This document shows positions 3,544-60,998 of a stretch of DNA of 64,000 bases, in pieces. Below the pieces are notes generated by a model, which had not been told where the DNA came from, did not search any database, and saw only the letters and a program-made list of their open reading frames with translations. Each line of letters starts with the position of its first letter. Position 1 is the stretch's first letter. This stretch comes from Streptosporangiaceae bacterium. Lineage in GTDB: Bacteria; Actinomycetota; Actinomycetes; Streptosporangiales; Streptosporangiaceae. The position numbers and the translations under genes are program-made. Where the stretch lies: positions 4,507 to 68,506 of the forward strand of contig DATKQH010000376.1 of the NCBI GenBank assembly GCA_035532775.1, in the 5' to 3' direction.

Positions 3544-3604
3544 GGCCTCAACGCGGGTCGAAGCGGCAAGTGATCGAGCGGAACACTGGACAAGCATCGG
3601 TTCC

Positions 3605-3671: not shown

Positions 3672-3920
3672 GTGGCCGAAGCTGCCCAGCCGGTTGCGGA
3701 TCAGGTTCTGGACTGCTCGGGCATGGCCTGCCCGCTGCCGGTCGTCAAGACGTCACAGGCGATCAAGAAGATCGATCCCGGCCAGGTTCTCGAATTGCTC
3801 GCGACCGATCCGGGCGTCGAGCCTGACATGCGGGCCTGGACCACGCGCACCGGCAACGAGCTCCTCAGCATCGCCAGGCAGGGCGACGTGTTCCACGTCC
3901 TGATTCGCCGGATGAAGTGA
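3672..3920 (+). CDS. tusA: TusA-family sulfur carrier protein
   Basis: LDCSGMACPLPVVK is the CPxP active-site motif. GTG 3672 is preceded by AAGGCGGA. The ATG at 3570 was rejected because it would place the AT-rich promoter-like segment inside the gene. Confidence 0.85.
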   Translation: MAEAAQPVADQVLDCSGMACPLPVVKTSQAIKKIDPGQVLELLATDPGVEPDMRAWTTRTGNELLSIARQGDVFHVLIRRMK

Positions 3921-3932
3921 CGGGAGCCACGC

Positions 3933-4316
3933 ATGTGGACCGGTGACCTCGATTCCAAGGTTCTTTACGTGCAGACGCATGGAGTGAGCGACCCGGGCCG
4001 CTCGGCGACCCCGTTCTTCCTCGCGGCATCCGCAGCGGCGATGGAGTGCGAGGTCATGATCTATTTCACGATGTACGGGCCGACGCTCCTGCGCAAGGAC
4101 GTCATCGACAAGATCGGGCCGAAAGGCGACCACGGCCAGCCGCTGCGCTACTTCATCGAGCAGGCCACCGGCCTCGGGGTCCGGCTGCTGGTCTGCCAGC
4201 CCTCGCTTGACCTGAACGACCTGCGCATCGGGGATCTCCTCGACGGCGTCACGATGATCGGCGGCGCGGCCTTCAACGACCTTGCGATCTCCGCCGACGC
4301 AGTCATCAGCTTCTAG
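3933..4316 (+). CDS. DsrE/DsrF-family sulfur-relay protein (DsrE3-like)
   Basis: 127 aa with a DsrE-fold pattern (VLYVQTHG...MIYFTMYG...LLVCQPSL with a conserved Cys). SD GGGAG lies upstream. Its position directly after tusA matches shdr clusters. Confidence 0.8.
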   Translation: MWTGDLDSKVLYVQTHGVSDPGRSATPFFLAASAAAMECEVMIYFTMYGPTLLRKDVIDKIGPKGDHGQPLRYFIEQATGLGVRLLVCQPSLDLNDLRIGDLLDGVTMIGGAAFNDLAISADAVISF

Positions 4317-4327
4317 GAGCCGCGGCC

Positions 4328-5041
4328 ATGCCCGAGACGGACGCTCACATGAAGGCACCAGTGGTGGCGGGCTACCCTGACGTACCCCTGGCCGAGAAGG
4401 AGCGGCTGTTCGAGCAGGTCAAGGGCGATCTCCGATTCGGTGACTACCTGTACGGCTGCTATGAGTGCGGCATCTGCGTCGCCGTCTGCCCATCGGCCAG
4501 GTTCTACGACTTCAGCCCCCGGCGCATCGCGCAGGCCGCCGCGCGCGAAGACGTCGAGCTCATCTACCAGCAGATGCAAGAAGACATCTGGGAATGCTCC
4601 CAGTGCTTTTCCTGCCTGCGCTGCCCGCGCGGGAACAACCCAGGCGGGCTCATCACGATCATGCGCGAGGTCGCCGTCAACAACGGCCTGGCGTCCGCGA
4701 AGGAAGCCCTCGGCGGATACTCGCGGATCATCTACAAGATCATGTCGACCGGCACCCAGGTGTCACCGGACATGCTCCAGCCCGATGCTTTTCCCGATTG
4801 GGGCCCGGAGACCAGCGACGTCTCGGTCAATCTGGACCTGTGGCGCCGGGCGCTGCCGCCGGAGACGATGCACACCACGAACACCGGCTGGAAGGTCGCC
4901 GACTCGACGCTGATCGAGCTCTACCTCATCTGGCTGCACACCGGCGTCCTCGACATGATCGAGGACGTCGACCCCGGCTTGCACGCGATCCTCCGCGAGC
5001 TCATGGAGGAACGCCTCGAAGAGGAAGGGATTGAGCCATGA
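4328..5041 (+). CDS. shdrC1: sHdrC1, heterodisulfide reductase subunit C-like 4Fe-4S dicluster protein
   Basis: Two ferredoxin motifs, CYECGICVAVCP and CSQCFSCLRCP. ATGA overlap with the next gene. Confidence 0.85.
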   Translation: MPETDAHMKAPVVAGYPDVPLAEKERLFEQVKGDLRFGDYLYGCYECGICVAVCPSARFYDFSPRRIAQAAAREDVELIYQQMQEDIWECSQCFSCLRCPRGNNPGGLITIMREVAVNNGLASAKEALGGYSRIIYKIMSTGTQVSPDMLQPDAFPDWGPETSDVSVNLDLWRRALPPETMHTTNTGWKVADSTLIELYLIWLHTGVLDMIEDVDPGLHAILRELMEERLEEEGIEP

Positions 5042-6228
5042 CGATTCCGATCGAGGCGCTCAAGCGCAAGAAGGAGCACTTCGAACGCGGCGAGGACCAC
5101 CGCGCCCTGGAAGACCCGCGCGGTGAACTGCTCGAACTCGAAGAGCGGGGCGAGGTTGTGGTGCAGAAGATCGACCGCGAGGCGATCACCGTGCCCACCA
5201 AATACGGCCGCGACAAGCGGATCCAGAAAGCCCATCTCTGGCACCACAAGTCCTGCGGGCAGTGCGGCCACATCCCCGGCTACTCGACCTCGATCTTCTG
5301 GGTCATGCGCAAGCTCGGCTACGACTATCACGACCCGCAGGACCAGACGTCCTGCACGGCCTGGAACTACTACGCCAGCGCGACGTCGAATTCCGCCGCG
5401 CAGGCCGCGGTGGCCGTGCGGAACTTCGCCGCCGCGCACCAGACCGGGTATTTCCCGCTGATCCACTGCGGCACCTCCTACGGGCACTACAAGGAGGTCA
5501 GGGAGGAGCTGATCCGGCATCCCGAACTGCGCTCCGAGGTACGCGAGATCATGGCCAGGCTCGGCAAGGAACTCGTCCTGCCTGAGGAGATCGTCCACTA
5601 CTCCGAGTGGTTCCACGCGATGCGGCACGAGATCGCGGCCCGGGCAATCCGAGACGTGTCCTCGATCACGGTCACGGTCCATCCCGCCTGCCACTACTAC
5701 AAGCTCGTCGAGGGCGACGCGATCTACGACCCGGACATCTACGGCGGCCAGCGGACCGCCGTGGTCACCGGGCTCGCCGAGGCGCTGGGCGCCGAGGTTC
5801 GGAGCTACTCGACCTGGTTCGACTGCTGCGGCTTCGGCTTCCGGCACATCCTCGTCCAGCGGGATTTCACCCGGTCCTTCGCGACCCTGCGCAAGATCGA
5901 GGTCATGAAGGAGGAGGCCGACCCCGACGTCGTCCTCACCCACGACACCGGCTGCGTGACAACCCTGGACAAGAGCCAGTTCGCCGCCCAGGCCCATGAC
6001 CGCAACGTCGGTGTGGCCGTGATGAGCGACGCGCAGTTCGCCGCCCTGGCCATGGGCGCCCACCCGTACCGCGTCTGCCAGCTCCACTGGCATTCCGCCG
6101 ACTACCGGCCGGTGCTGGAAAAGATGGGCATTGACCACGAGCGGGCGTGGGCCGAGTTCCAGGCTGACCTCAAGCGGCTCGAAAGCGGCGAGAAGCGGTA
6201 CCTCGACTGGGATGACGTCGACGGCTAA
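5038..6228 (+). CDS. shdrB1: sHdrB1, heterodisulfide reductase subunit B-like CCG-domain protein
   Basis: CCG-domain signature WFDCCGFGFRH plus a second degenerate CCG region. Translationally coupled to shdrC1. Confidence 0.85.
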   Translation: MTIPIEALKRKKEHFERGEDHRALEDPRGELLELEERGEVVVQKIDREAITVPTKYGRDKRIQKAHLWHHKSCGQCGHIPGYSTSIFWVMRKLGYDYHDPQDQTSCTAWNYYASATSNSAAQAAVAVRNFAAAHQTGYFPLIHCGTSYGHYKEVREELIRHPELRSEVREIMARLGKELVLPEEIVHYSEWFHAMRHEIAARAIRDVSSITVTVHPACHYYKLVEGDAIYDPDIYGGQRTAVVTGLAEALGAEVRSYSTWFDCCGFGFRHILVQRDFTRSFATLRKIEVMKEEADPDVVLTHDTGCVTTLDKSQFAAQAHDRNVGVAVMSDAQFAALAMGAHPYRVCQLHWHSADYRPVLEKMGIDHERAWAEFQADLKRLESGEKRYLDWDDVDG

Positions 6229-6280
6229 GCAGAGCCGGTACCGCAGCCGCGGTGCCGCTGATCAGCACATGGGGTGAGGG

Positions 6281-7345
6281 ATGTCCTCGGACACGATAGC
6301 CGTTATCGGCGGCGGGCCTGGCGGCCTTCGGGCCGCGCACGGCATCGCCGAGATCGGCGGAAAGGTCCTGCTGATCGAGCAGCGCGACTTCCTGGGCGGA
6401 GCGCCGATCGCGGAGAACTACGCGGGCCTGACCCCGCGCGGGGAGCCAGCCGAGCCGCAGATCCGCCGGATGATCGACCTGGTGACGGCGAGCCCGGATG
6501 TCGACATCCGGCTCGGCACCGAACTGGCCGCCGCGGCTGGCGAGCCGGGGGCATTCTCACTAACCCTCGCCGGCCCCGATGGCGAGCAGCGGGCGGAGTG
6601 CGGTGCGATCATCGTCGCGACCGGATTCACCCACTTCGATCCGGGCCGGGAAACCCAGATGTACGGGTACTACGAGTTTCCCGACGTCATCACCCTGCCC
6701 GACCTGGAGGGGATGCTGTCCCAGCACCAGGTCGTCCGGCCATCCAATGGCGAGCCGCCGGAACGGATCTGTTTCATCCAGTGCGTCGGCAGCCGGGACC
6801 GCAAGATCGGCAACGAGTACTGCTCCAAGGTTTGCTGCGGGGTCGCCTCCAAGGAGGCGATCGAACTCCGGCAGCTGCTGCCGAACTCCAAGGTCTACAT
6901 CTTCTACATCGACATGCGGATGTATGGCTACTGGGAAAACGAGATCTACTGGCCCGCTCAGGAAAAGCACCATGTCCAGTACGTCAAGGGGATCATCAGC
7001 GAGGTGCTGCCCAAGGGCGACAAGCTGCTCGTCCGCGGCGAGGACACCACCATGGGACGCCCGATGGAGATCCTGATGGACCTGGTGGTCCTGTCGGTGG
7101 GCATGGAACCATCGCCCGGCACCAAGAAGGTAGCCGGCCTTCTCGGCGTCAGGCAGAACAAATACGGCTTCATCGATGCGGTCGGCATGCCCCTGGACAC
7201 TGTGTCCACCAGCCGGGAAGGGATCTTTGCCTGCGGCGCCGCGCTCGGGCCGGCCGACATCGAGGACACCGTCTCCTCGGCGGCCGGAGCGGCCATGAAG
7301 GCCTTCGGGTACCTGCGCTCGCAGTCTCGTGCGTCGGTCGGCTGA
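6281..7345 (+). CDS. shdrA: sHdrA, FAD- and FeS-binding heterodisulfide reductase subunit A-like protein
   Basis: Dinucleotide fold IAVIGGGPGG and the HdrA cluster motif CFIQCVGSRDRKIGNEYCSKVCCGVASK. Confidence 0.9.
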   Translation: MSSDTIAVIGGGPGGLRAAHGIAEIGGKVLLIEQRDFLGGAPIAENYAGLTPRGEPAEPQIRRMIDLVTASPDVDIRLGTELAAAAGEPGAFSLTLAGPDGEQRAECGAIIVATGFTHFDPGRETQMYGYYEFPDVITLPDLEGMLSQHQVVRPSNGEPPERICFIQCVGSRDRKIGNEYCSKVCCGVASKEAIELRQLLPNSKVYIFYIDMRMYGYWENEIYWPAQEKHHVQYVKGIISEVLPKGDKLLVRGEDTTMGRPMEILMDLVVLSVGMEPSPGTKKVAGLLGVRQNKYGFIDAVGMPLDTVSTSREGIFACGAALGPADIEDTVSSAAGAAMKAFGYLRSQSRASVG

Positions 7346-7356
7346 GCGAGCAGGTC

Positions 7357-8091
7357 ATGATCGCGGGACCGGTTGTCGACACGCCAAGCGCGCAGGAGTT
7401 CCAGCGCGAGATTCTCGGTCGGATCACGGCTGAGGAACTCCAGGCCATCGCGGCTGACCTGGAGCGCAAGTCCCGCATGCTTCGCGACGTGCTGCTGCCG
7501 GACCCCGGAAGCCTCGATCGCGCGGCGCTGCGGCAGGTGCTGCGTCTCACGTTCGCGACCAGACGCCGTGCCGATCAGATCCTGGACGAGATCGGCCCGG
7601 GCCGGCTCGCCGCAGCCATCGCCGGCCTTCTCGGCGGCGGTGATGACCTTGCCGCGCGGTACGACCAGTTCAGTGCGCTGCTCACCGGTTATCCGGGGCC
7701 TGGCTTCGACCTGCCGTCCGAGCTGCTCCATTTCACCTATCCGGACCGGTACTGGCTGTGGACCAGGTGGCTGTGGGACCCCAGCACCGAGACCGGCGCC
7801 CTCGGCCTGGTGACTACCGATGACGTCGATCTGACCGAAGGCACGAGCCGGGGCGAGATCTACCTGACCGTCGGGCGCGCCATGGCCTTCGTCGACGAGA
7901 CCGGCAAGGCGGCCGGCTTCACGACCGCCGGCCCGGGCCTGTTCGGCACCGACGTCTTCCTGGCCGCCGTCTACGGGATCTACATGTACACAGTCCTGCG
8001 GATGCGGATGACGCGGGAGTTCAACCGGCTCGTCCCGCCGCTGCCCGACCTCATCCGTCGCCTGCTCGGCGTCTACCACCTGGAGGGCTAG
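7357..8091 (+). CDS. shdrH: Conserved hypothetical protein in the sHdrH position
   Basis: In-frame ATG at 7357 within ORF 6274-8091. The upstream part of that ORF is an out-of-frame shadow of shdrA. No cofactor motif was found, so the call rests on position between shdrA and the C2-B2 fusion. Confidence 0.6.
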   Translation: MIAGPVVDTPSAQEFQREILGRITAEELQAIAADLERKSRMLRDVLLPDPGSLDRAALRQVLRLTFATRRRADQILDEIGPGRLAAAIAGLLGGGDDLAARYDQFSALLTGYPGPGFDLPSELLHFTYPDRYWLWTRWLWDPSTETGALGLVTTDDVDLTEGTSRGEIYLTVGRAMAFVDETGKAAGFTTAGPGLFGTDVFLAAVYGIYMYTVLRMRMTREFNRLVPPLPDLIRRLLGVYHLEG

Positions 8092-8095
8092 GACC

Positions 8096-9406
8096 ATGCC
8101 AATCGGAGGCCGAAAGGTCCCGCCCCGCGCGGTAGAGAAGGAGACCGCGACGGTCGCCTCGCCCATCTCCGGCCGGGAGGTCGAGCTTCCGGCGATGTGG
8201 AACCGGATGTTCGAGCCGCGCGTGCTCACCGACTACGACCCAGTCGGCTTCGAGAAGATCTCCGCGCTTCCCGGCGGTGAGTCACTGGAATGGTGCTACG
8301 GCTGCGGAAAGTGCATTCCGGTCTGCCCGGTGGACATGGTGGGGGAGTACAGCCCGCGCAAGCTGCACCGCAAAGTCCAGACCGGTATCGACCTGCTCAC
8401 CGACGATGATCTGTGGCTCTGCACCACCTGCGGTAATTGCCTGCGGGTCTGCCCGAAGGAAGTCGACATGATCCAGATCATGCCGGCCGTCCGCGAGGCC
8501 GCTCTGACCGACGGCTCCCCAGTGCCGTCCGAGCTTCAGGATGTCTTCGAGAAGACCTTCAGATACGGCAACGCACTCGGCGAGAACGCCCGCCGCCGCG
8601 CCCAGTGGACCAGGGCGGCCGGCGTCCCGGTGCGGATCCTGCCTAGTGACCCGTTGCCGGTGGACGTGCTGTTCTACGTCGAGGACTACTGGAGCTACCA
8701 CCCGCGCGGCCAGCAGGCCGCGCGGGCCTTCGCCCGGGTCGCCACCGCGCTCGGCGTCGACTGGGCCATCCTCGGCCACGAGGAAAAGACGGTCGGCGAC
8801 TCGCAGCGCCTGGCCGGCGAGCAAGGCCTGTTCGATTCGCTCGTCGAGGATGTGACCGCGACCCTGGCCAAGTACGAGTTCGCCAGGATCGTGACCCCTG
8901 ACCCGCACGCGTTCAACGCCCTGGTCAAGGAGTACCCCAGGCGGGGGCACTCCTTCGACGTGCTGCACTACACCCAGCTTCTTGCGCCCCTGGTCGGGCA
9001 GGTCACCTGGGCGAAAGAGCTGAACCTGCGGGTCACCTTCCACGACCCCTGCTACCTCGGCCGGCACAACGGCGAGTACGACGCCCCGCGCACCCTGATC
9101 GAGGCCATACCGGGCGTGGAACTCCTCGAGATGGCCCGGTGCCGCGAGAACGGCTACTGCTGCGGCGGCGGGGGCGGCGGCATGTGGCTGGATGGATTCG
9201 CGAAGAACCACGCGGCCGAGCGCCTGTCCGAGCGCCGGGTCAGAGAGGCCGCGGCGACCGGTGCCGACGTCCTTGTCGTCTGCTGCCCGTACGAGGTCTC
9301 GCGGTTCGAGGACGCCGCTAAGTCCACGGGGCACGATCAGCTGCAGGTCAGGGACATCATCGAGCTGATCGACGAGGCGATGGGCCTTGGGTCTGCCGGT
9401 GAGTGA
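8096..9406 (+). CDS. shdrB3: Fused HdrC2-HdrB2-like FeS/CCG protein (sHdrB3 type)
   Basis: N-terminal CYGCGKCIPVCP and CTTCGNCLRVCP; C-terminal CCG motifs (HDPCYLGRH, YCCGGGGG). SD GGAGGG lies upstream. Confidence 0.8.
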   Translation: MPIGGRKVPPRAVEKETATVASPISGREVELPAMWNRMFEPRVLTDYDPVGFEKISALPGGESLEWCYGCGKCIPVCPVDMVGEYSPRKLHRKVQTGIDLLTDDDLWLCTTCGNCLRVCPKEVDMIQIMPAVREAALTDGSPVPSELQDVFEKTFRYGNALGENARRRAQWTRAAGVPVRILPSDPLPVDVLFYVEDYWSYHPRGQQAARAFARVATALGVDWAILGHEEKTVGDSQRLAGEQGLFDSLVEDVTATLAKYEFARIVTPDPHAFNALVKEYPRRGHSFDVLHYTQLLAPLVGQVTWAKELNLRVTFHDPCYLGRHNGEYDAPRTLIEAIPGVELLEMARCRENGYCCGGGGGGMWLDGFAKNHAAERLSERRVREAAATGADVLVVCCPYEVSRFEDAAKSTGHDQLQVRDIIELIDEAMGLGSAGE

Positions 9407-10421
9407 CGTGCTGCGAGTCATCGACTTCGGGCGGGTCACGCCGCTGCGCTCGCAGACCCTGTGGCATGCCGTTGCCTACGGCGTCAGCGGCGGCGAGCCC
9501 GCCACGCTGTCCTTCGCCCGGCCGTCCGCGCCGTACGTCTGCCTCGGCTACCTACGCGACGCCGCCGAGGTGGACCATGAATATTGCGCGTCCCATGGCC
9601 TGCCTGTCTACCGGCGGATGGTCGGCGGTGGTCCGGTCTACCTGGATGACCGGCAGCTCTTCTTCCAGATCTGCATCCCGGCCGGCGACGTCTCGCCATC
9701 ACGCCGCGACGCACTGCGCTCACTGCTGGAGCCGGCCGTGTCGGCGTTCCGTGTGCTTGGTGTCGACGCCAGACTCGATGACAACGGCGAGATCTGCCGC
9801 GATGATGCGAAGATCTGCGGTCACGGTGCCGGCCAGATCGAGGACGCGGTGGTGGTCTGCGGCAACCTGATCGAGGCGTTCGACCACCAGCGCGCCGCCC
9901 GCGTGCTGGCGCTGACCGATCCGGTGCAGCGCGCCGAGACACTGCGGCTGATGCGGCGCTACGTCGCCTCGACGCCGGTAGATCCGGGAGCCTTCCGCGC
10001 CGCGCTGATCGACTCGTTTTCCGGCGCCCTGGGGCTGCGGGCCGAATCTGGCGTGCTCAGCCCCGCCGAGCTCAAGTCAGTCCACAAGCTCGACCGCCGC
10101 TTCGTTACAGCCGAATGGCTCGCCGGGCCAGACCGGACGGCCCCGACTGTCAGCACGGGCCGGCAGGTCAAGGTGCGCGCGGGAATCTGGACGTTCGCCG
10201 TGCAGGCGAGCAGCGGCGCCAGCGTCGTGGCGAGCGTGGTGAGGGAAAGGCTGGACCGGGTCGTCCTTACTGCGCCAGGAATGAATAGCCAGGCCGAGGC
10301 CGCGGCGTGCGCCCTTGCCGGGATGCCCGTCTCTGCCGCCGCCGACGTGCTGAGCCGGTTCGGCGAGTCAGGAACTGAACTTGCGGCGGCACTGGCCAGA
10401 GCCGAAGGCAGACTGCCATGA
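9387..10421 (+). CDS. Divergent lipoate-protein ligase A-like protein (sLpl(AB)-like, paralog 1)
   Basis: BPL/LplA-type core with VYRRMVGGGPVYLD and the probable catalytic-lysine region AKICGHGAGQ. The TTG start at 9387 is uncertain; GTG 9399 or 9408 are alternatives. Confidence 0.7.
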   Translation: MGLPVSDVLRVIDFGRVTPLRSQTLWHAVAYGVSGGEPATLSFARPSAPYVCLGYLRDAAEVDHEYCASHGLPVYRRMVGGGPVYLDDRQLFFQICIPAGDVSPSRRDALRSLLEPAVSAFRVLGVDARLDDNGEICRDDAKICGHGAGQIEDAVVVCGNLIEAFDHQRAARVLALTDPVQRAETLRLMRRYVASTPVDPGAFRAALIDSFSGALGLRAESGVLSPAELKSVHKLDRRFVTAEWLAGPDRTAPTVSTGRQVKVRAGIWTFAVQASSGASVVASVVRERLDRVVLTAPGMNSQAEAAACALAGMPVSAAADVLSRFGESGTELAAALARAEGRLP

Positions 10422-13073: not shown

Positions 13074-14212
13074 CAGCCCGAGCGAGGGCCTGCGGGGGTG
13101 GCCCAGCGCGTAAAAGAGCCGAAGGCGACGCGCAGGGCCACCCCCGCAGGCCCTCGCTCCCCCTGCTGACCCGACCTAGGACCAGCCCCGACTACGTAAG
13201 AATCTCCTACGCCAGCGCCATCGCCCTCCGCATGAAGTCCGGAAGATTCAGCCGGGACTTCGATTTCGGTGGCATCAACCTGCTGCTCAATTACGACGAG
13301 GGCTGCCTGTCCGACTGCGGCTACTGCGGCCTGGCCCGCACGAGGCCCGTCGACTATGGCGACCAGTTCATCCGGGTGGAGTGGCCCCTGGTCGGAACCG
13401 ACGAACTCGTCGACCGGATGGCCACCCGCGAGGACAAGCTGACCAGGCTGTGCATCTCGATGGTCACGCACGGCCATGCCTACGCCGACACTTGCGACAT
13501 CACCCGGCGGATCGCAGCGCGGGTGCGCACTCCGCTGTCGATCCTGGTCGCGCCGCCGACCCTCAACCGGGAGCGGCTGGAGACGTTCAAGGCGCTGGGC
13601 GTAGACATGATCGGGATCGGGCTGGACGCCGTCACCGAGGACCTTTTCCGCAACATCCGCACCGACGTGCCGGCCGGCGGCCTGAAGTGGGAGAAGTACT
13701 GGGAGGTCGTCACCGACTCCCGCGAGATCTTCGGTCCGTGGAAGGTCAACGTGCACACCCTGGTCGGGCTCGGGGAGACCGACCAGGACCTGATCGAACT
13801 GTTCTGTGCGCTGCGGGACAAGGAGATCTTCTCCTACCTGTTCTGCTTCAACCCAGAGCCCGACTCCCGGATGGCTGGTCACCCCAAGTCGCCGTTGGTC
13901 CGCTGGCGCCGGGTCCAGCTGGCCAAGCACCTGATCGAAACCGAGGGCTACGACCTGGGCCAGTTCGACTTCGACGCCGACGGCGGCCTCGTGCACCTGC
14001 GGGCCGGTGCAGCGGCAGTAGACGCGGTGGTCAGCCAGGGCGTCGCCTTCATGACCAACGGCTGTCCGGGCGAGAAAGGCGAACCAGGCTGTACCCGGCC
14101 GTATGGCTCCTACCGTCCGGCCGAGCCATTCCGCGATTACCCGTTCCTCCCTTCGGCAGCCGACCTGGATGAGATCAGGCAGCAGCTGCGGCTCGACGAA
14201 GTTCTCCGCTAG
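13070..14212 (+). CDS. Radical SAM protein, LipS1/LipS2-type lipoyl synthase component (BioB/LipA-like)
   Basis: CLSDCGYC radical-SAM motif. The conserved-looking N-terminal segment VRISYASAIAL begins about 40 codons after ATG 13070, which makes an ATGA overlap with the ligase. Those 40 codons contain the hairpin, so the true start is uncertain. Confidence 0.75.
   Translation: MTARARACGGGPARKRAEGDAQGHPRRPSLPLLTRPRTSPDYVRISYASAIALRMKSGRFSRDFDFGGINLLLNYDEGCLSDCGYCGLARTRPVDYGDQFIRVEWPLVGTDELVDRMATREDKLTRLCISMVTHGHAYADTCDITRRIAARVRTPLSILVAPPTLNRERLETFKALGVDMIGIGLDAVTEDLFRNIRTDVPAGGLKWEKYWEVVTDSREIFGPWKVNVHTLVGLGETDQDLIELFCALRDKEIFSYLFCFNPEPDSRMAGHPKSPLVRWRRVQLAKHLIETEGYDLGQFDFDADGGLVHLRAGAAAVDAVVSQGVAFMTNGCPGEKGEPGCTRPYGSYRPAEPFRDYPFLPSAADLDEIRQQLRLDEVLR
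13080..13159. repeat. Perfect 25-bp inverted repeat (about 80-nt hairpin)
   Basis: GAGCGAGGGCCTGCGGGGGTGGCCC (13080-13104) is the exact reverse complement of 13135-13159. A further 5 bp (13106-13110 / 13129-13133) pair after one A/A mismatch. The loop is 18 nt, TAAAAGAGCCGAAGGCGA. Confidence 0.9.
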
Positions 14213-14227
14213 ATAAGGCAGAAACGC

Positions 14228-14998
14228 GTGCGAATTGTTGTGCTTATGAAGGCAGTTCCGGACCTCGTCGAAGAGATCGAGCTCACCGCTGACGAGACCG
14301 GTATCGATCGCGAGTTCCTCAAGTTCGTGGTGAGCGAATGGGACGCGCAGGCGCTGGAGGAGGCGCTGCTAATCAAGGACGCCGCCGGCGCCGACGTCGT
14401 GGCCGTCGGCCTGGCCAGTGATCCGGACATCGACCAGGCGCTCTACACAGCGCTCGCCAAGGGTGCTGATTCGGCGGTGAAGGTCACCGGCGGCGAGGAG
14501 ACGATGCTCACCGGTGACCGGGCCGCGCTGCTGGCCGGCTACCTGGCGGCCGAGCCGGCCGACCTGGTGATGACCGGGGTGCAGGCTGCTGACGACATCG
14601 ACGGCCAGTTGCCGCCGATGCTCGCCGCTCACCTCGGACAGCCGCACGTATCGGTGGTGGTCGCGGTGGAGGCCGCCAATGGCGGGGTCACCGTGCGGCA
14701 GGAGTTCGCCGGCGGCCTGGTGCACGAGCTTGCGGTGCAGCTTCCGGCCGTGATCGGCGTGCAGGCGGCCAGGCAGGCACCCCGGTACGCCCCGATCACC
14801 CGGATCCGGCAGGCGATGCAGGCCGGCGGCCTGCGTGAGGTGACTGCCGCCGCAGCGACTGCCGCCCCAGCACCGACGGTGCGGCGAATGTTCCGGCCGG
14901 AGCAGGCCAGTCACGCCCAGATGCTGACCGGCAGCGCCGATGACGTGGCTACGGCGATCGCGGACCTGCTCCGCGACCGCGGCCTGGTGAAGGGGTGA
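14228..14998 (+). CDS. etfB: Electron transfer flavoprotein beta subunit
   Basis: MRIVVLMKAVPD... typical EtfB N-terminus and length. GTG start. Confidence 0.9.
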   Translation: MRIVVLMKAVPDLVEEIELTADETGIDREFLKFVVSEWDAQALEEALLIKDAAGADVVAVGLASDPDIDQALYTALAKGADSAVKVTGGEETMLTGDRAALLAGYLAAEPADLVMTGVQAADDIDGQLPPMLAAHLGQPHVSVVVAVEAANGGVTVRQEFAGGLVHELAVQLPAVIGVQAARQAPRYAPITRIRQAMQAGGLREVTAAAATAAPAPTVRRMFRPEQASHAQMLTGSADDVATAIADLLRDRGLVKG

Positions 14999-15005
14999 GG
15001 ATGTT

Positions 15006-15968
15006 ATGGGCGGGAACGTGCTGGTGCTCGCTGAGCACGACGGCAAGCAGATCTCCGACGCCACATACGAGCTGCTCGGGGCTGCCCGTGATCTCGCGGC
15101 CGCGCTGGGCGGTCAGGCGGAGGTGGCGCTGTTCGGGCCGCGCGATCTGGCCAGCCAGCTTGGCGGGGCCGATGTGGTCGTCAGCGTGGATCACCCCGCG
15201 CTCGCCGAGTACTTGCCCGAGGCGTACGAGCAGGCGCTGACCGCGGTGCTCGCCGAGCGGTCACCGCGGCTGGTGCTGATGTCTACGGCCACGGCGGGCC
15301 TCGACCTCGGCGCCGCGGCGGCAGTGCGCTGGCAGGCTCCGCTGGCCGCCGCTGTCACCAAGCTCGAGGCGGCGGCCGGTGAGATCGTGGCCACCGCGCA
15401 GATCCTGGGCGGGAAAGTGCTGGCCGAGCTTGAGCTACCGGGCGAGCGGGCGATCGCGGCCGTCGTCGGCGGGACATATCCTGCCGCGGCCGGCCAGGGA
15501 GCAGGCACGCCGGAGGTGGTCGAGGTCGCCCCGCCCGCCGGGCTTGACCGGCTGCGGATGAGCCTGGTCCAGGTGACCGAGCCGCCGGGTGGCGACGTGG
15601 ATATCACCACGGCCGACCTGCTGGTGTCGGTCGGGCGGGGAATCGAGTCGCAGGACAACGTCGAGCTCGTGCAAGAGCTCGGCGACGCGCTCGGCGTCCC
15701 GCTGTCGGCATCGCGGCCCGTGGTCGACGCGGGCTGGCTGCCCAAGACCCGCCAGGTCGGCAAGTCGGGCCTGAAGGTAAAGCCGAAGGCCTACCTGGCG
15801 TTCGGCATCTCCGGCGCGCCGGAGCACCTCGAAGGGATGCGTGACGCCGACCTGATCATCGCCTGCAATACCGACCCGGGCGCGCCGATCTTCGACGTCG
15901 CGCACTACGGGACCACGGTCGATCTGTTCGACCTCGTTCCCGCGCTCACCGAGAAGCTGGGCCGGTGA
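15006..15968 (+). CDS. etfA: Electron transfer flavoprotein alpha subunit
   Basis: VLVLAEHDG...; C-terminal FAD-binding region PKAYLAFGISGAPEHLEGM. Confidence 0.9.
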   Translation: MGGNVLVLAEHDGKQISDATYELLGAARDLAAALGGQAEVALFGPRDLASQLGGADVVVSVDHPALAEYLPEAYEQALTAVLAERSPRLVLMSTATAGLDLGAAAAVRWQAPLAAAVTKLEAAAGEIVATAQILGGKVLAELELPGERAIAAVVGGTYPAAAGQGAGTPEVVEVAPPAGLDRLRMSLVQVTEPPGGDVDITTADLLVSVGRGIESQDNVELVQELGDALGVPLSASRPVVDAGWLPKTRQVGKSGLKVKPKAYLAFGISGAPEHLEGMRDADLIIACNTDPGAPIFDVAHYGTTVDLFDLVPALTEKLGR

Positions 15969-17989
15969 TGCTCGTCCGGATCATCGTCGGCGGCGTCATC
16001 GTCCTGGCCGGGCTGGGCCTGGCGGGGACGCGGCTCGCCTGGCTGGCTCGCCTGGTCCGGTCAGGCCAGCCTGCGCCTGGTCGGCTCGCGGACGCGCCCG
16101 CCCGGGTGACTGCCGAGCTCGCTGAGGTGCTCGGCCAGCGCAAGCTCTTCAAGCGGTGGCGGTCGGGACTTCCGCATGCGCTGGTGTTCTGGGGTTTCCT
16201 GATCCTGCTCTTCACCATCATCGAAGCACTGGGGGACACCTTCCTCAGCAAGGACTTCGCGATCCCGCTGATCGGGCACTCGGGCGAGCTCGGCTTCGTC
16301 GAGGACCTATTCACGGTGATCGTGCTGGCCGGGCTCGCGGTCTTCACGGTGACCCGGCTGGTCGAATCACCCCGCCGCCGGGGAAAGTCCTCCCGTTTCT
16401 ACGGCTCGCACACGACGGCCGCGTGGATCACGCTGTCGATGATCGCGCTTGTGATGATCACGCTGCTCGGCTACCGCGCGGCGCAAGTCAACACCGGTCA
16501 TTTCCCCTACGGGAACGCGGCATTCGCGTCCCACTGGCTCGCGGGCGTCTTGAAGCCGCTCGGCACGAGCGCGAACTCCGGGCTCGAAACCGGCCTGCTG
16601 CTGGCGAACATCGCCGTGATCATGGGGTTCGGCGTCTTCGTCACCTACTCCAAGCACCTGCACATCGTGATGGCGCCGCTGAACGTCGCGTTCTCACGGC
16701 GGCCGCGTGCGCTCGGGGCGCTGGGCGAGCTGCCCGCCGAGGCGCCGGCGGCAACTCCGCAACTCGAGCTGCTGACCTGGAAGCAGCGGCTGGACGCGCT
16801 GACGTGCACCGAATGCGGGCGATGCCAGTCCGCCTGTCCGGCGTGGAATAGTGGCCAGCCGCTGTCTCCCAAGCTGCTCATCATGAACCTGCGGGACGGC
16901 CTGATGTCGTCTGGTACCGGGAGCGCAAGCGACACTGTCCATGACGGGGACAGCAACGGAACCGATGGCGCCGCCGAGACGGCGGTCATCAGCCCGGACG
17001 TTCTGTGGTCCTGCACTACCTGCGGTGCCTGCGTGGAGCAATGCCCCGTCGACATCGAGCACGTCGACACGATCGTGCATCTGCGCCGCCAGCTCGTCGA
17101 CGCGGGACAGATCGAGCCTGCCGTCCGGCAGGTTCTCCAGGCTGACGCCCAGCAGGGCAACTCCTTCGGCAAGTCGAGCCGGATGCGTGCCCGGTGGACC
17201 CGCGAGCTCGGCTTCGGCGTGAAGGACGCCCGCAAGGAGCCAGTGCGGTACCTGTGGTTCGTCGGCGACTTCGCCTCGTTCGACGAACGGCTTCAGGTCC
17301 TGTCCCGCAGCCTGGCCCGCATCCTGCGCGATGCGGGCGTGGACTTCGGGATGCTCTTCGACGGCGAACGCGACGACGGCAACGACGTGCGGAGGATCGG
17401 CGAGGAGGGCCTGTTCCAGATGCTCGCCGAGCAGAACATGGAAGCGTTCCGCAGCGCCACCTTCGAGGAGATCTTCACCACTGATCCCCACTCGTTCAAT
17501 ACCCTGCGGAACGAGTATCCGGCGTTCGGCCTGGACAAGCCGGTCATGCACTACTCGCAACTGCTGCAGCGCCTGCTTGGCGATGGGGCCATCGGCGTCG
17601 AGCCGCTCGGCATGCGGGTGACCTACCACGACCCGTGTTACCTGGCCAGGCACAACCGGCTTACCGACCCGCCACGGCAAGTCCTCGCTGCGCTCGGCTG
17701 CGATCTGGTGGAGATGCCGAGGAACGGGCTGAACACGTTCTGCTGCGGAGCAGGCGGCGGGCGGATCTGGATGACGGGACCTGAACAGGCCGAGCGGCCG
17801 AGCGAGAGCCGGATCCGCGAGGCGGTTGCCGTCGGCGTCGATCACTTCGTGGTCGCCTGCCCGAAGGACTTCGTCATGTACACCGATGCGGTCAAGACCA
17901 CGGGCAACGACGACCGCATCACGGTGATCGATCTCATCCAGCTTGTCGACCGGGCGCGCCGCCCGGCCCCGACTCTCGAAACCGTCTGA
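15965..17989 (+). CDS. Membrane-anchored FeS/CCG oxidoreductase (EMO / EtfD-like ETF:menaquinone oxidoreductase)
   Basis: The N-terminal ~250 aa are hydrophobic with several predicted helices. These are followed by CTECGRCQSACP, CTTCGACVEQCP and CCG motifs (HDPCYLARH, FCCGAGGG). ATGA overlap with etfA. Confidence 0.8.
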   Translation: MMLVRIIVGGVIVLAGLGLAGTRLAWLARLVRSGQPAPGRLADAPARVTAELAEVLGQRKLFKRWRSGLPHALVFWGFLILLFTIIEALGDTFLSKDFAIPLIGHSGELGFVEDLFTVIVLAGLAVFTVTRLVESPRRRGKSSRFYGSHTTAAWITLSMIALVMITLLGYRAAQVNTGHFPYGNAAFASHWLAGVLKPLGTSANSGLETGLLLANIAVIMGFGVFVTYSKHLHIVMAPLNVAFSRRPRALGALGELPAEAPAATPQLELLTWKQRLDALTCTECGRCQSACPAWNSGQPLSPKLLIMNLRDGLMSSGTGSASDTVHDGDSNGTDGAAETAVISPDVLWSCTTCGACVEQCPVDIEHVDTIVHLRRQLVDAGQIEPAVRQVLQADAQQGNSFGKSSRMRARWTRELGFGVKDARKEPVRYLWFVGDFASFDERLQVLSRSLARILRDAGVDFGMLFDGERDDGNDVRRIGEEGLFQMLAEQNMEAFRSATFEEIFTTDPHSFNTLRNEYPAFGLDKPVMHYSQLLQRLLGDGAIGVEPLGMRVTYHDPCYLARHNRLTDPPRQVLAALGCDLVEMPRNGLNTFCCGAGGGRIWMTGPEQAERPSESRIREAVAVGVDHFVVACPKDFVMYTDAVKTTGNDDRITVIDLIQLVDRARRPAPTLETV

Positions 17990-17999
17990 GGGGGACAGC

Positions 18000-18320
18000 A
18001 TGGACTGCCCGTGGTGCGACCTCGCGGCCGGGCCACGGGCACTTCATGCTCATCTCGGCGAGCGGCACGGCGACCAGGTCCGGACAAGTGAGCGCAACGG
18101 GAAGGTCTTCTACGAGATCACCTGCCCGAAGTGCGGAGACCGTTACCAGCATTTGGTCAGGAAGGCCGCCCGCGACCCGGAGTTCCTGGCCGGATTCGGC
18201 CGCGAGATACGCATGGTTGCCCTCGACATGCTCGTCCATCACCTGTTGGCCGAGCACGGGCAGCCCCACGACGAGCAGCCCGGACACGAACTGCCAGCAC
18301 AGCAGGGGACAGGAGACTGA
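18000..18320 (+). CDS. Small hypothetical protein with two CxxC...HxxxxH zinc-finger-like units
   Basis: MDCPWCDLAAGPRALHAHLGERH and CPKCGDRYQH...LVHHLLAEH. The ATG at 18000 lies 11 nt after the EMO stop, and the gene ends 5 nt before lbpA paralog 2. Confidence 0.5.
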   Translation: MDCPWCDLAAGPRALHAHLGERHGDQVRTSERNGKVFYEITCPKCGDRYQHLVRKAARDPEFLAGFGREIRMVALDMLVHHLLAEHGQPHDEQPGHELPAQQGTGD

Positions 18321-18324
18321 CGCG

Positions 18325-18762
18325 GTGGCCCTGGTCAACAACTGCAACATTCCCGAGGACCTGTACTACGTCGTCGACAAGCACGTCTGGGCCCGCAAGG
18401 ACGGCGACCTGGTGACGGTCGGGATGACCGACGTCGCGCAGAGCCTCGCCAAGTCGATCATCGCCGTGACCCTCAAGAAGCCGGGCAGGGCAGTCGCCCG
18501 TGGCCGCAACATCGCCACGGTCGAAAGCGGCAAGTGGGTCGGCCCGGTGCCCGCGCCTGTAACCGGCGAGATCGCGGAGGTCAATGCCGCGCTCGAAACC
18601 TCACCGGGGCTGATCAACTCCGATCCGTATGGTGGCGGATGGGTGGCCAGGCTGCGACCCTCTGACTGGGACGCCGAAGTGAGCGACCTCGCATCGGGCC
18701 CGGCGGGCGTCGAGGTATACCGGCAGTTCCTCGACGCGGAAGGGATCGCCTGCGGCGGGTGA
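18325..18762 (+). CDS. lbpA: GcvH-like lipoate-binding protein LbpA (paralog 2)
   Basis: IPEDLYYVVDKHVWAR...VGMTDVAQ...ATVESGKWVGPVPAPVTG...DPYGGGWVARL. GTG 18325 with AGGAG 9 nt upstream. Confidence 0.75.
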   Translation: MALVNNCNIPEDLYYVVDKHVWARKDGDLVTVGMTDVAQSLAKSIIAVTLKKPGRAVARGRNIATVESGKWVGPVPAPVTGEIAEVNAALETSPGLINSDPYGGGWVARLRPSDWDAEVSDLASGPAGVEVYRQFLDAEGIACGG

Positions 18763-18768
18763 CGATGC

Positions 18769-19224
18769 ATGGCTGACCTCCTCTGGCATGGCTGCGCCGT
18801 TCCGGACCACCTGCTCTATGACGTCGAACTGAACGTCTGGGTCCGCCTGGAAGGCGACGTCGCCGTGCTGGGGATGACCGATATCGCTCAGACCCTGGGC
18901 GGACGGATGGTGCAGGTCAGCTGGAAAAGAACCGGCCGGAGCTATCAGCGCGGCCGGTCCGTCGCGGTCATCGAGAGCGCCAAGTGGGTCGGGCCGTTTC
19001 CCACGCCGCTGACCGGAGAACTGCTCGAGGTTAACGAGGAGCAGTTTGCCTCCGATATTGCCGTCGCCAACCGCGACCCGTACGGGACGGGCTGGATGGC
19101 GCGGATCCGGCCAGCCGATCTCGCGGGGGAGCGGCACCACCTGGTGGACGGCACCGCTGCGTTCGAGGCTTACCGCGAACTGATCGATGAACGAGATATC
19201 CGCTGCTACCGATGTGTGGACTGA
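18769..19224 (+). CDS. lbpA: GcvH-like lipoate-binding protein LbpA (paralog 3)
   Basis: VPDHLLYDVELNVWVR...LGMTDIAQ...AVIESAKWVGPFPTPLTG...DPYGTGWMARI. Clearly a tandem paralog of the preceding gene. Confidence 0.8.
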   Translation: MADLLWHGCAVPDHLLYDVELNVWVRLEGDVAVLGMTDIAQTLGGRMVQVSWKRTGRSYQRGRSVAVIESAKWVGPFPTPLTGELLEVNEEQFASDIAVANRDPYGTGWMARIRPADLAGERHHLVDGTAAFEAYRELIDERDIRCYRCVD

Positions 19225-19243
19225 CCCGAAGGAGAGAGCACCC

Positions 19244-19771
19244 ATGCAGACCACCGACATCTCCGCCGCTGCCCAGGAAATGACCCAGGACGAGCAGGCC
19301 AAGCGCATGGCCATCATCTGCTGGAGCGGTGACCTGGACCGGGTGTGGCCGACCCTGATCCTGGCCACGACCGGCGCCGCATCCGGCCTGGAGGTCGACG
19401 TGTTCTTCACCTTCTGGGGACTGCGAGTGCTCCAGAAGAACTCCAGGCGGATCACCGGCAGGAACTGGATGCAAAAGGGCGAGTCGCTCGTCGACCGCGG
19501 CGGCACCGACCACCTCAAGCTCGGCAAGATCCATTTCGGCGGCATGGGCACAAAGATGATCAAGATGCTGGCAAAGCGGTACAAGGTCGCCAGCCCGACC
19601 GAGCTGCTGGACATGGCGCTCGAGTGCGGCGTGCGGCTGCACCCCTGCCAGATGACGATGGACCTGTACGGCTTTGCCGCGGACGATTTCATCGACGGCC
19701 TGCAGCCCACGCTCGGCGCGGCGAGCTTCATCGACATGGCGGCCAAAGCCGACATCACGTTGTTCATCTGA
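19244..19771 (+). CDS. DsrE/DsrF/DrsH-like family protein (DrsE_2 type)
   Basis: MAIICWSGDLDRVWPTLILATTGAASGLEVDVFFTFWGL...HPCQMTMD pattern. ATG 19244 preceded by GGAGAG. Confidence 0.7.
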   Translation: MQTTDISAAAQEMTQDEQAKRMAIICWSGDLDRVWPTLILATTGAASGLEVDVFFTFWGLRVLQKNSRRITGRNWMQKGESLVDRGGTDHLKLGKIHFGGMGTKMIKMLAKRYKVASPTELLDMALECGVRLHPCQMTMDLYGFAADDFIDGLQPTLGAASFIDMAAKADITLFI

Positions 19772-19772
19772 C

Positions 19773-20444
19773 GTGCTGATCCTGCTGACCACCGACCCGG
19801 TCATCACCCGCCGGATCGGTCAGCTGGCGCAGGAGCATGGGCTGGTAGTCGCCGATCCGCCGGAGGCGGCACCGGACTCGGATCAGGCTACGGCTGGCGC
19901 GGCACCTGTGCTGGCCGTTATCGACGTGCTGCGCTCGGATGCCCTGGAGCGCGTGCGAGCGTGGCGTGCCTGGTGGCCGGACACGCTGATCGCGGGCCAC
20001 ATCGGCGTTCCGGACAAAGACCGGTGGGTTGCCGCCCAGCGGGCCGGCTGCGATCTGGTTGCCAGCCGGGGCGCGTTGCTGCCGCAGCTGCGCGAACGGC
20101 TGGCCCGGAGCGGCGGCCAGCGTAGTGAGCGGTTCCCGCTGCTCGATGTGGCTGAGGCCGCCGGACGGCTCGGGCTGGTCTGCCGAGTGGACGTGACGCC
20201 AGTTGGCCCGGTGTCCGTCTATCGGGTGGCCGGTGGCTGGCACGTGGTCGCCGACCGCTGTCCGCATGCCGGGGCCGCGCTCTCCGCCGGGGATCTCGAT
20301 GGCACGGTGATCACGTGTCCCGGGCACGGTAGCAGGTTCGATGTCCGGACCGGCGAGCGGCTTCGCGGCCCGGCCGATACCGACATCGCGGTGTTCCCCA
20401 TCGTCCAGGAAGGCGGTCAGATCTGCCTGTCGGTCAGGCGGTAA
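19773..20444 (+). CDS. Rieske [2Fe-2S] domain protein with an uncharacterised ~110-aa N-terminal domain
   Basis: C-terminal CPHAGAALS...CPGHGSRF Rieske motifs. GTG 19773 lies 2 nt after the upstream stop. I do not recognise the N-terminal half. Confidence 0.75.
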   Translation: MLILLTTDPVITRRIGQLAQEHGLVVADPPEAAPDSDQATAGAAPVLAVIDVLRSDALERVRAWRAWWPDTLIAGHIGVPDKDRWVAAQRAGCDLVASRGALLPQLRERLARSGGQRSERFPLLDVAEAAGRLGLVCRVDVTPVGPVSVYRVAGGWHVVADRCPHAGAALSAGDLDGTVITCPGHGSRFDVRTGERLRGPADTDIAVFPIVQEGGQICLSVRR

Positions 20445-37174: not shown

Positions 37175-37176
37175 CG

Positions 37177-60498: not shown

Positions 60499-60994
<496 letters not shown>

Positions 60995-60998
<4 letters not shown>

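Follow-up and report, generated by a model that had tools for sequence, protein, structure and literature searches.

A probable type II sHdr-LbpA sulfur-oxidation operon of 20 genes in an uncultured member of the Actinomycetota

In a 64-kb stretch of DNA from a Streptosporangiaceae bacterium (contig DATKQH010000376.1; the whole stretch is called the window below), 20 co-directional open reading frames (ORFs) on the plus strand span positions 3672-20444 (Table 1). Here, we conclude, an uncultured member of the Actinomycetota probably carries a type II sHdr-LbpA operon in complete form, and this operon probably works as has been proposed for its type. The proposed route follows by homology from the type I system, from the structure and assay of EtfD, and from a proposal that Tanabe et al. 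2024 cite. TusA, DsrE3A, and DsrE2 would pass sulfane sulfur or a thiosulfonate, from a source outside the window, to the LbpA proteins (Lbp2 and Lbp3) and the sHdrC1-B1-A-(H)-B3 complex, which would oxidize the bound sulfur to sulfite in the cytoplasm. Electrons would exit via the HdrD-like sHdrB3 to a dedicated EtfAB, which would hand them to an EtfD/EMO-type membrane protein that reduces menaquinone. Lpl2 and LipS1/LipS2 would lipoylate the LbpAs, with Lpl1 and Lbp1 in some supporting role, and a single promoter ahead of tusA would probably drive expression, controlled by a neighboring repressor of the ArsR family. The region is thus a new uncultured example of an already catalogued type II system.

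The type II sHdr/LbpA assignment had been made in a sequence-only reading of this DNA, and it is borne out by the published definition, by the match of sHdrA to the solved structure 6TJR, and by homology to the corresponding positions of type I clusters. By definition, type II requires shdrC1B1AHB3 and etfAB in one syntenic cluster, usually with emo next to it (Tanabe 2024, PMC11094781; Li et al. 2024). In the window, the five shdr genes are contiguous at 4328-9406, and etfB, etfA, and emo lie in the same cluster. This layout was published as “Group III” (Cao et al. 2018, eLife, PMC6067878) and is the “type II” of Tanabe et al. 2024 (Protein Sci, PMC11094781), found also in Actinobacteria; the latter authors list 130 type II assemblies, mostly from Chloroflexota, Actinobacteriota, and Bacillota. 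They also state that type II clusters accompany TusA and DsrE3A, a statement that the TusA and DsrE3A-type pair of the window fits, and published statements give Actinobacteria two or three LbpA together with EtfBA.

The gene content itself is secure. Our ORF calls give 20 same-strand genes in the order first read from the sequence, and the stored gene calls of the source contig (ENA ERZ27256801 k141_1405001, metagenomic, 69.4 kb) give the same genes. Third-position G+C (GC3), measured in the final frame for 18 of the 20 ORFs (the H-position and Zn-ribbon ORFs were left out), is 0.76-0.92 against 68% G+C for the window, which is typical of real genes. All of the domains named in the sequence-only reading were recovered with Pfam: TusA, DsrE, a Fer4 dicluster, CCG, Pyr_redox_2, two LplA-B_cat, three GCV_H, and two Radical_SAM domains and, further on, ETF, ETF_alpha, a Fer4 plus CCG membrane protein, DrsE_2, and Rieske. 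The motifs claimed for TusA (CPLP), sHdrA (GGGPGG and CVGSRD...YCSKVCC), and sHdrC1 (eight Cys) are read directly from the sequence. Each of the six 4-nt start/stop overlaps is where it had been placed (ATGA at 5038, 10418, 10894, and 13070; GTGA at 11913 and 15965), and the remaining gaps, said to be mostly below 20 nt, are 1-19 nt with the sole exception of 52 nt between shdrB1 and shdrA. Two starts have alternatives, TTG at 9387 in place of GTG at 9408 for Lpl1 and ATG at 15968 for emo. The tight spacing and the six overlapping stop and start codons would allow translational coupling.

A search with sHdrB3, at one genome per species, gave 209 loci, and synteny was compared over the best 80 of the 209 (72-93% identity). 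These best 80 are almost all from Actinomycetota, including many metagenome-assembled genomes (MAGs) of Acidimicrobiales and Streptosporangiaceae from soils and peat; cultured carriers among them include Amycolatopsis acididurans, A. alkalitolerans, Streptomyces caeni, Mycolicibacterium moriokaense, Gordonia rhizosphera, and Ferrithrix thermotolerans. By tblastn, the gene order of the window is seen in nearly all of the 80, and its sHdr core is 70-93% identical to that of the closest MAGs; with the single nearest MAG, protein identity is 70-92%. Two features that the sequence-only reading had singled out, the lipoate genes amid the redox genes and the extra genes at the 3′ end, do not stand out in this company. 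The lipoate block follows shdrB3 in 67 of 78 informative loci, with etfB coming directly in the other 11, F. thermotolerans among them. After emo, the commonest order is Zn-ribbon ORF, lbpA, lbpA, with dsrE2 and the Rieske gene next in most loci that are long enough; the full 3′ tail is present in Saccharomonospora marina XMU15 and in S. caeni (both reached via the Rieske protein). Since both recur across actinobacterial loci, the lipoate insertion and the 3′ genes are family traits. The type II relatives (S. marina, S. caeni, Amycolatopsis, and others) have the same genes in the same order, tusA-dsrE3A-shdrC1B1AH-B3-(lpl1-lbp1-lipS1-lpl2-lipS2)-etfBA-emo-(ZnF)-lbpA-lbpA-dsrE2-Rieske, and no essential difference was found; S. 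marina and S. caeni have a 144-amino-acid ORF between emo and the Zn-ribbon ORF and a 45-amino-acid ORF before dsrE2, both of which the window lacks. As a side observation, near-identical clusters turn up in MAGs labelled Gemmatimonadota, Dormiibacterota, and Burkholderiales (loci L007, L059, and L062), and the sHdr core is 70-90% identical between the classes Acidimicrobiia and Actinomycetes. Near identity under such distant labels, together with high identity across classes, suggests that contigs were misbinned or that the operon has moved laterally as a whole.

For comparison with type I, a plasmid-borne reference was sought by tblastn of sHdrA against PLSDB, which gave just two distant Hdr-like genes; 80 proteobacterial loci pulled from metagenomes with the 6TJR sequence were used instead. 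Against this set, sHdrC1 is 44-47% identical to its type I counterpart, with 8 of 8 Cys in common, and sHdrB1 is 50-53% identical, with 8 Cys in common; the ninth Cys of type I sHdrB1 is Ala332 in the window protein, which has Cys347 instead. The sHdrA protein is of the short form (354 amino acids, one [4Fe-4S] cluster, neither ferredoxin nor inserted domains) and, at 42% identity to type I, keeps the four cluster Cys 168/181/185/186. Its best solved relative is sHdrA of Hyphomicrobium denitrificans (6TJR), aligned over residues 6-350 at 286 bits and 4e-84, whereas methanogen HdrA aligns to residues 102-341 only (about 240 residues) at no more than 186 bits. Generic HdrA, HdrB, and HdrC models do match A, B1, and C1, but all of the Hdr NCBIfam equivalog scores are far under their cut-offs, in keeping with the sequence-only call of sHdr as opposed to the Flx or methanogen type. 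The H-position ORF had been listed by its shdrH position. No Pfam or NCBIfam family matches it; its relatives make up 1190 protein clusters in a public collection, and the homologue search gave close relatives only (at least 71% identity), with no bridge to type I sHdrH. The AlphaFold2 (AF2) model is poor, with a mean predicted local distance difference test (pLDDT) score of 58 and values below 50 in the C-terminal half. By tblastn and alignment, however, the protein is 24-36% identical, about 27%, to the H-position ORFs of type I clusters, and because of this identity we take it to be a true sHdrH homologue.

The following gene, shdrB3, had been read as a C2-B2 fusion, and that label is right by position and architecture but only in part by sequence: the CCG half of the protein finds no sHdrB2 match in the type I loci. 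Pfam sees Fer4 and a single CCG stretch, and sHdrB3 matches type I sHdrC2 in the N-terminal ferredoxin part only (about 80 bits). In an alignment with EtfD, its first CCG site shows D/T/D where EtfD has Cys, and four Cys and the His are retained in the second, a ligand pattern that EMO has as well. Over 425 columns, sHdrB3 is 35.8% identical to the soluble half of the EMO encoded in the window (246 bits), and on these alignments sHdrB3 reads as an HdrD-like paralogue of the EMO soluble module. The type I clusters of H. denitrificans, other Proteobacteria, and Aquificota run shdrC1B1AHC2B2-lbpA with lipS1-lipT-lipS2-slpl(AB). What is shared is homologous C1, B1, A, H, LbpA, LipS1/S2, and ligase, with DsrE3 and TusA nearby, the same Fe-S ligand Cys, and start/stop overlaps among the lipoate genes. 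Unlike type I, the window has HdrD-like B3, with its one CCG site, in place of C2 and B2; it has dedicated etfBA and emo and no lipT; it has the extra Lpl1, the Cys-less Lbp1, the Rieske protein, and the Zn-ribbon ORF; and it lacks those Cys of sHdrA that are peculiar to type I (at 113 and 203 in the window numbering of the protein) as well as the ninth Cys of sHdrB1.

The presence of etfB, etfA, and an EMO-like quinone reductase, also claimed beforehand, is confirmed by Pfam, by PDB matches (1O94 and 9OJN), and by the heme, quinone, and cubane ligands. The best PDB match of EtfB is the beta subunit of Methylophilus methylotrophus ETF (1O94, 112 bits), followed by the Clostridioides ETF 5OL2 (76 bits), and that of EtfA is the 1O94 alpha subunit, with weak discrimination (182 vs 171 bits). 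The M. methylotrophus ETF takes its electrons from the [4Fe-4S] center of trimethylamine dehydrogenase; the other ETFs in the PDB match list presumably include bifurcating ones. A bifurcating ETF was considered and dropped, the best matches being to M. methylotrophus ETF, with the weak discrimination just given for EtfA.

The EMO protein matches M. smegmatis EtfD (9OJN) at 3e-148 and 498 bits and by this match is a close homologue of mycobacterial EtfD (Rv0338c/MSMEG_0690), with which the Syntrophus EMO is grouped as a close known system. A five-helix heme b domain is combined in it with two cubane clusters and a single CCG cluster. Kept from EtfD are the heme b ligands His71 and His233, the heme-propionate Arg131/144/286, the quinone-site Phe78/222, the eight cubane-cluster Cys, and, in the noncubane cluster D2, four Cys and the His, with D2 Cys712 of EtfD replaced by Asp635; the EtfAB partner is common to both systems. 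What is missing is the linear [3Fe-4S] cluster D1, whose EtfD ligands Cys503/538/581/584 are D435, D470, D507, and S510 here. This pattern is found in every cluster-linked EMO that covers those positions (about 55 of the 59 loci with an EMO) and in both of the sequence classes into which these proteins fall; the window protein belongs to the less common class, being 61-90% identical to some loci and 43-49% to the rest. Also unlike mycobacterial EtfD, it is without the long disordered C-terminal tail (674 vs 1042 amino acids) and lies in a sulfur-oxidation operon, whereas EtfD serves beta-oxidation. In the EtfD structure, Courbon et al. 2026 (EMBO J, PMC13083937) found an Fe-S/heme wire to menaquinone, and they assayed EtfD-dependent coupling of ETF to the respiratory chain; the linear [3Fe-4S] cluster was placed first in a possible path, and the ETF-binding site and entry cluster were left unassigned. 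Since this cluster is lacking, electron entry into EMO may differ from that in EtfD. We take EMO to be a D1-less EtfD subtype, predicted to work like EtfD, and sHdrB3 and EMO may present equivalent docking surfaces to the dedicated EtfAB.

The sequence-only reading had counted three lbpA genes. In the LbpA signature, the lipoyl Lys is accompanied by two Cys, one near each end of the protein, both of which are lacking in GcvH (Cao et al. 2018, PMC6067878). Two of the three genes stand up: Lbp2 has its lipoyl Lys in ESGKW with Cys7 and with Cys143 in “ACGG,” both signature Cys being present in 53 of 53 orthologues, and Lbp3 has its lipoyl Lys in ESAKW with Cys9 and Cys146/149, both Cys being present in 19 of 19. 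The third, Lbp1 in the lipoate block, keeps the lipoyl Lys but has no Cys at all; among its orthologues, 44 of 63 are without any Cys, none of 63 has the C-terminal Cys, and 60 of 61 keep the Lys. As it lacks the signature Cys, we file Lbp1 as a GcvH-like carrier and not an LbpA. Scores against type I LbpA run in the same order, at 134 bits for Lbp2, 115 for Lbp3, and 72 for Lbp1, with identity to type I LbpA of about 44%. Separation of LbpA from GcvH by score alone was set aside, the margin for Lbp2 being modest (134 bits vs 102 for the best PDB GcvH), and deep branches were unresolved in Cao et al. 2018 (PMC6067878), so the assignment rests on the signature Cys and on synteny. By the gcvH equivalog TIGR00527, the three H-proteins score 75.8, 89.7, and 63.5 bits against a cut-off of 115.85, while Lbp2 does pass the NCBIfam GcvH “subfamily” cut-off (128 vs 117 bits). 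No GCV_T or GDC-P match was found by Pfam among the 57 called ORFs that our whole-window scans covered, and there are no E1/E2/E3 genes in the window, so that these proteins do not look like parts of a glycine-cleavage system.

Of the enzymes that would lipoylate these carriers, LipS1 and LipS2 are each the top NCBIfam match by a wide margin and about 40% identical to the type I gene, with scores of 220 bits against a cut-off of 230 for LipS1 and 189 against 270 for LipS2. Lpl2 is the best match to the single type I ligase in nearly all type I loci (27-33% identity, about 31%) and has the invariant columns of type I sLpl(AB). Lpl1 reaches 56 bits in the NCBIfam lipoyltrans model, whose cut-off is 280; RRxxGGG and the catalytic Lys are present in it, but of the 51 columns without variation across Lpl2 and type I sLpl(AB) it shares only 19. 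On this comparison, Lpl2 is the orthologue of the characterized sLpl(AB) and Lpl1 a divergent paralogue. Pfam scans found no ORF for LipT, a flavin adenine dinucleotide (FAD) oxidoreductase, in the cluster or elsewhere in the window; LipT accompanies the lipoate set in type I clusters (Tanabe et al. 2023) and is accessory, not defining. The Lpl1/Lbp1 pair may serve as a lipoyl relay or an assembly scaffold. The lipoyl relay of Bacillus subtilis (LipM, GcvH, LipA, and LipL) offers an analogy and no more: there too, a lipoylatable H-protein without the features of end-user proteins is encoded alongside a lipoyl synthase and a pair of proteins from the LplA/LipB/LipM/LipL superfamily. In the window, however, the synthase is LipS1/S2 and not LipA, and the sequence of Lpl1 carries no sign of an amidotransferase or octanoyltransferase; Lpl1 has no NCBIfam match to LipL, LipM, or LipB and retains the Lys typical of ligases. 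Extended to the whole family, the analogy would have Lpl2 and LipS1/S2 build lipoate on Lbp1 and Lpl1 pass it to the LbpAs, with sHdrB3 and EMO as D1-less docking modules served by a shuttling ETF, a scheme that we put forward as doubtful. The D1-less EMO, the paralogy of B3 and EMO, and the Cys-less Lbp1 with its divergent Lpl1 may be novelties relative to the literature compared here, which does not include the 2024 paper of Kümpel et al. in BBA, where a sHdrB3/Etf/EMO wiring was reportedly proposed.

The sole PDB match of the DsrE3A-type protein is 3MC3 of S. solfataricus, named DsrE3A in Tanabe 2024 (PMC11094781), and its Cys88 is at the conserved position. For the DsrE2-type protein, the best PDB match is 2QS7, named DsrE2B in the same paper (PMC11094781), and its score in the NCBIfam DsrE2 model is 107 bits, where the cut-off is 210. 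The Zn-ribbon ORF, whose zinc-ribbon Pfam matches are all below threshold, is placed between emo and lbpA in most relatives, S. marina included. The Rieske protein has 495 homologues of the same two-domain length, with an N-terminal alpha/beta domain that carries the invariant Cys93 and a C-terminal Rieske [2Fe-2S] ferredoxin. Its AF2 model has a pLDDT of 87; the fold search recognized the Rieske ferredoxin domain only, the top Foldseek matches being dioxygenase Rieske ferredoxins. Its gene follows dsrE2 in loci L037, L054, L063, and L064, in S. marina, and in S. caeni.

The ArsR-family gene upstream of tusA is kept beside the cluster in most relatives, and many of them have a pair of such genes. 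PDB relatives of its product include NmtR, NolR, BigR, and SqrR. The two conserved sensing Cys of sHdrR from H. denitrificans (HdsHdrR), Cys50 and Cys116, are 66 residues apart, and shdr-linked ArsR regulators are often without them, according to the literature. The window protein has Cys at 17 and 75 only, a spacing of 58, and by this comparison of spacing, as distinct from a residue alignment, it does not seem to belong with the two-Cys sHdrR proteins. A small Cys-rich ORF, divergent from tusA, has no Pfam family above threshold and is found upstream of tusA in many relatives (42-76% identity by tblastn). Between this ORF and tusA, the CTGGACA and TAAGCATAT motifs and the imperfect palindrome are kept in the closest relatives (L001-L010 and L025), and the segment 3586-3635 is a candidate promoter with a putative ArsR operator. 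Farther upstream (1-615 and 807-1433; L081 2503-5153), the window opens inside the gene of a 610-amino-acid Aminotran_5 (cysteine-desulfurase-like) protein, followed by a PIG-L family (MshB/Mca-like) gene and, just upstream of the ArsR gene, a divergent LysR regulator that is not kept beside the cluster in most relatives checked. It is conceivable that sulfane sulfur has a source linked to cysteine or mycothiol.

Several considerations weigh against the sulfur-oxidation operon proposed here. To our knowledge, many of the carriers are heterotrophic soil actinomycetes that are not known as sulfur oxidizers. Pfam scans of the 57 window ORFs found no sox, sqr, rhodanese, tsdA, or pdo gene, as the sequence-only reading had noted for sox, sqr, rhodanese, and thiosulfate dehydrogenase, and no soe or sor gene for removal of the sulfite. 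EMO is without the distal [3Fe-4S] cluster, and both LipS1 and LipS2 are under their NCBIfam equivalog cut-offs. A consensus promoter and terminator scan came out at chance (2 vs 1.1 promoter-like and 7 vs 5.5 terminator-like sites) and hence tells nothing about operon structure. Moreover, no type II sHdr system has been characterized biochemically or genetically (Tanabe 2024, PMC11094781).

The same machinery might be protective, disposing of cytoplasmic sulfane sulfur (persulfides and polysulfides from the breakdown of cysteine or organosulfur compounds) with electrons to quinone as a by-product and no lithotrophic or lithoheterotrophic growth. Such a role would suit the lack of dedicated sulfur-substrate-acquiring genes in the window, the mostly organotrophic carriers (Streptomyces, Amycolatopsis, Gordonia, and Mycolicibacterium), the adjoining ArsR-type regulator, the cysteine-desulfurase-like and PIG-L genes just upstream, and the absence of SoxT importers from all type II genomes (Li et al. 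2024). From the perspective of cost, however, twenty genes, among them a separate ETF, a quinone reductase, and a lipoate assembly set, are a large outlay for detoxification; the type I system of H. denitrificans, itself an organoheterotroph, is a supplementary electron-donor pathway, and the Calvin-cycle-type genes beside the S. marina cluster point to an energy role. We therefore consider a purely protective role unlikely, and oxidation of sulfur that feeds the quinone pool is the reading we prefer.

A reversal of direction would have electrons from quinol and ETF reduce a lipoyl- or protein-bound polysulfide or disulfide, after the manner of a heterodisulfide reductase. Menaquinol, at about -75 mV, would be a poor donor for this unless coupled, though the direction of electron flow through ETF and EMO is not readable from sequence. 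HdrB-type CCG clusters are the disulfide-reducing sites of methanogens (PMC13083937), and sHdrB2 is thought to be a disulfide reductase (Tanabe 2024, PMC11094781), but type I genetics show oxidation to sulfite (PMC6067878) and mycobacterial EtfD runs from ETF to menaquinone (PMC13083937), so we hold the reductive direction to be very improbable. Still less can be said for a module outside sulfur metabolism (Flx-Hdr, lactate/ETF, or methanogen HdrABC) with the H-proteins as parts of glycine cleavage or of 2-oxoacid complexes. The generic HdrB, HdrC, and HdrA matches of B1, C1, and A would allow it, as would the passage of Lbp2 over the GcvH “subfamily” cut-off, and a separate LutB/LutA-like CCG pair does lie at 47.6-50.6 kb. 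We nevertheless regard it as effectively refuted: sHdrA is short and aligns to 6TJR over its full length, with methanogen HdrA covering only about 240 residues; the Hdr equivalog scores fall far short; TusA, DsrE3A, and DsrE2 flank the redox genes; gcvP, gcvT, and E1/E2/E3 genes are absent from the window; all three H-proteins are under the gcvH equivalog cut-off, and Lbp2 and Lbp3 have two Cys lacking in GcvH; and synteny with type I reaches shdrH, lbpA, and lipS1/S2.

Table 1. Features of the cluster and of its upstream region (window positions).
Feature	Position	Strand	Remarks
ArsR/SmtB-family regulator	2796-3155	+	Pfam HTH_5 1.6e-16; candidate repressor of the cluster
Cys-rich small ORF, divergent from tusA	3172-3543	-	123 amino acids; several CxxC pairs
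Candidate promoter/operator	3586-3635	+	AT-richer; -35-like CTGGACA at 3586-3592; TAAGCATAT at 3610-3618; imperfect palindrome CATATGTGCAATTGCGAATGTG at 3614-3635
tusA	3672-3920	+	Pfam TusA 3.4e-22; CPLP motif at Cys20; predicted sulfur carrier
dsrE3A-type sulfurtransferase	3933-4316	+	Pfam DsrE/DrsE_2; PDB 3MC3; Cys88
shdrC1	4328-5041	+	Fer4_8; two [4Fe-4S] ferredoxin-like subunit
shdrB1	5038-6228	+	CCG domain; HdrB relatives in PDB; proposed catalytic subunit
shdrA	6281-7345	+	FAD/[4Fe-4S] flavoprotein, 354 amino acids; PDB 6TJR 4e-84
shdrH	7357-8091	+	Conserved protein; homologous to type I H-position ORF
shdrB3	8096-9406	+	HdrD-like: Fer4 dicluster and one intact CCG site
lpl1 (Lpl1)	9408-10421	+	LplA-B_cat 2.1e-20, partial; divergent LplA-like paralogue
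lbp1 (Lbp1)	10418-10897	+	GCV_H 7.9e-25; GcvH-like, without LbpA cysteines
lipS1	10894-11916	+	Radical SAM; NCBIfam LipS1 3.8e-65
lpl2 (Lpl2)	11913-13073	+	LplA-B_cat 2.4e-35, full length; sLpl(AB) orthologue
lipS2	13070-14212	+	Radical SAM; NCBIfam LipS2 1.2e-55
etfB	14228-14998	+	Pfam ETF; PDB 1O94 beta
etfA	15006-15968	+	ETF and ETF_alpha; PDB 1O94 alpha
emo/etfD-like membrane protein	15965-17989	+	PDB 9OJN 3e-148
Zn-ribbon-like small ORF	18000-18320	+	106 amino acids; CPWC...CPKC
lbpA (Lbp2)	18325-18762	+	GCV_H 2.6e-35; canonical LbpA
lbpA (Lbp3)	18769-19224	+	GCV_H 1.4e-26; second canonical LbpA
dsrE2-type sulfurtransferase	19244-19771	+	DrsE_2 8.2e-42, full length
Rieske protein, two-domain	19773-20444	+	Pfam Rieske

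The surroundings of the cluster in S. marina XMU15 (L163, CM001439.1 1983438-2004106) deserve mention. The cluster tail is followed there by Mrp/ApbC-like and IscA-like Fe-S assembly genes and a LysR gene and, further on, by genes for a glpX-type fructose bisphosphatase, an aldolase, a ribulose-phosphate epimerase, and a transketolase. The set has a Calvin-cycle look and hints at lithoautotrophy in this strain.

Elsewhere in the window, a GntR gene stands upstream of a group at 31014-39947 with a urocanase-like gene, two hydantoinase A-type genes, an acetone-carboxylase-gamma-like gene, and a hydantoinase B gene. Judged by these families, the group looks like a pathway for catabolism of imidazolone, hydantoin, or possibly thio-urocanate (ergothioneine-type); if the last were true, release of sulfide would be conceivable. 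The LutB/LutA-like pair lies on the minus strand at 47634-50590, comprising a LUD-domain/Fer4 protein and a protein with two CCG domains, and would serve lactate utilization, separate from sHdr. The segment 27742-29300, about 1.5 kb, has no convincing gene; its ORFs overlap in several frames, one with an MFS-like fragment, and a decayed gene or what is left of an insertion may account for it. A three-subunit molybdenum hydroxylase of the xanthine/CO-dehydrogenase family at 58138-61876 (minus strand) is unrelated to the cluster and is followed downstream by CoA-transferase and Asp/Glu-racemase-like genes. Rfam and tRNA scans of the whole window gave no match.

The window brings one further uncultured example, and its practical value is in the refinements. 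Among Actinomycetota of soils and peat, type II sHdr systems are widespread, as the 209 sHdrB3 loci and the 1190 sHdrH clusters attest. The solved structure of EtfD now provides a reference for their quinone-reducing end, and the D1-less EMO with its paralogue sHdrB3 suggests where ETF docks. Should the lipoyl relay and the twin docking modules prove true, they would provide a concrete wiring diagram for the type II system. For experiments, the cultured carriers of the identical layout, S. marina XMU15 and S. caeni, are a better entry than the window contig. If the operons are active, reduced sulfur could supply electrons for respiration in many ordinary heterotrophic actinomycetes, Streptomyces, Amycolatopsis, and Mycolicibacterium among them, which would be of consequence for sulfur cycling in soils.

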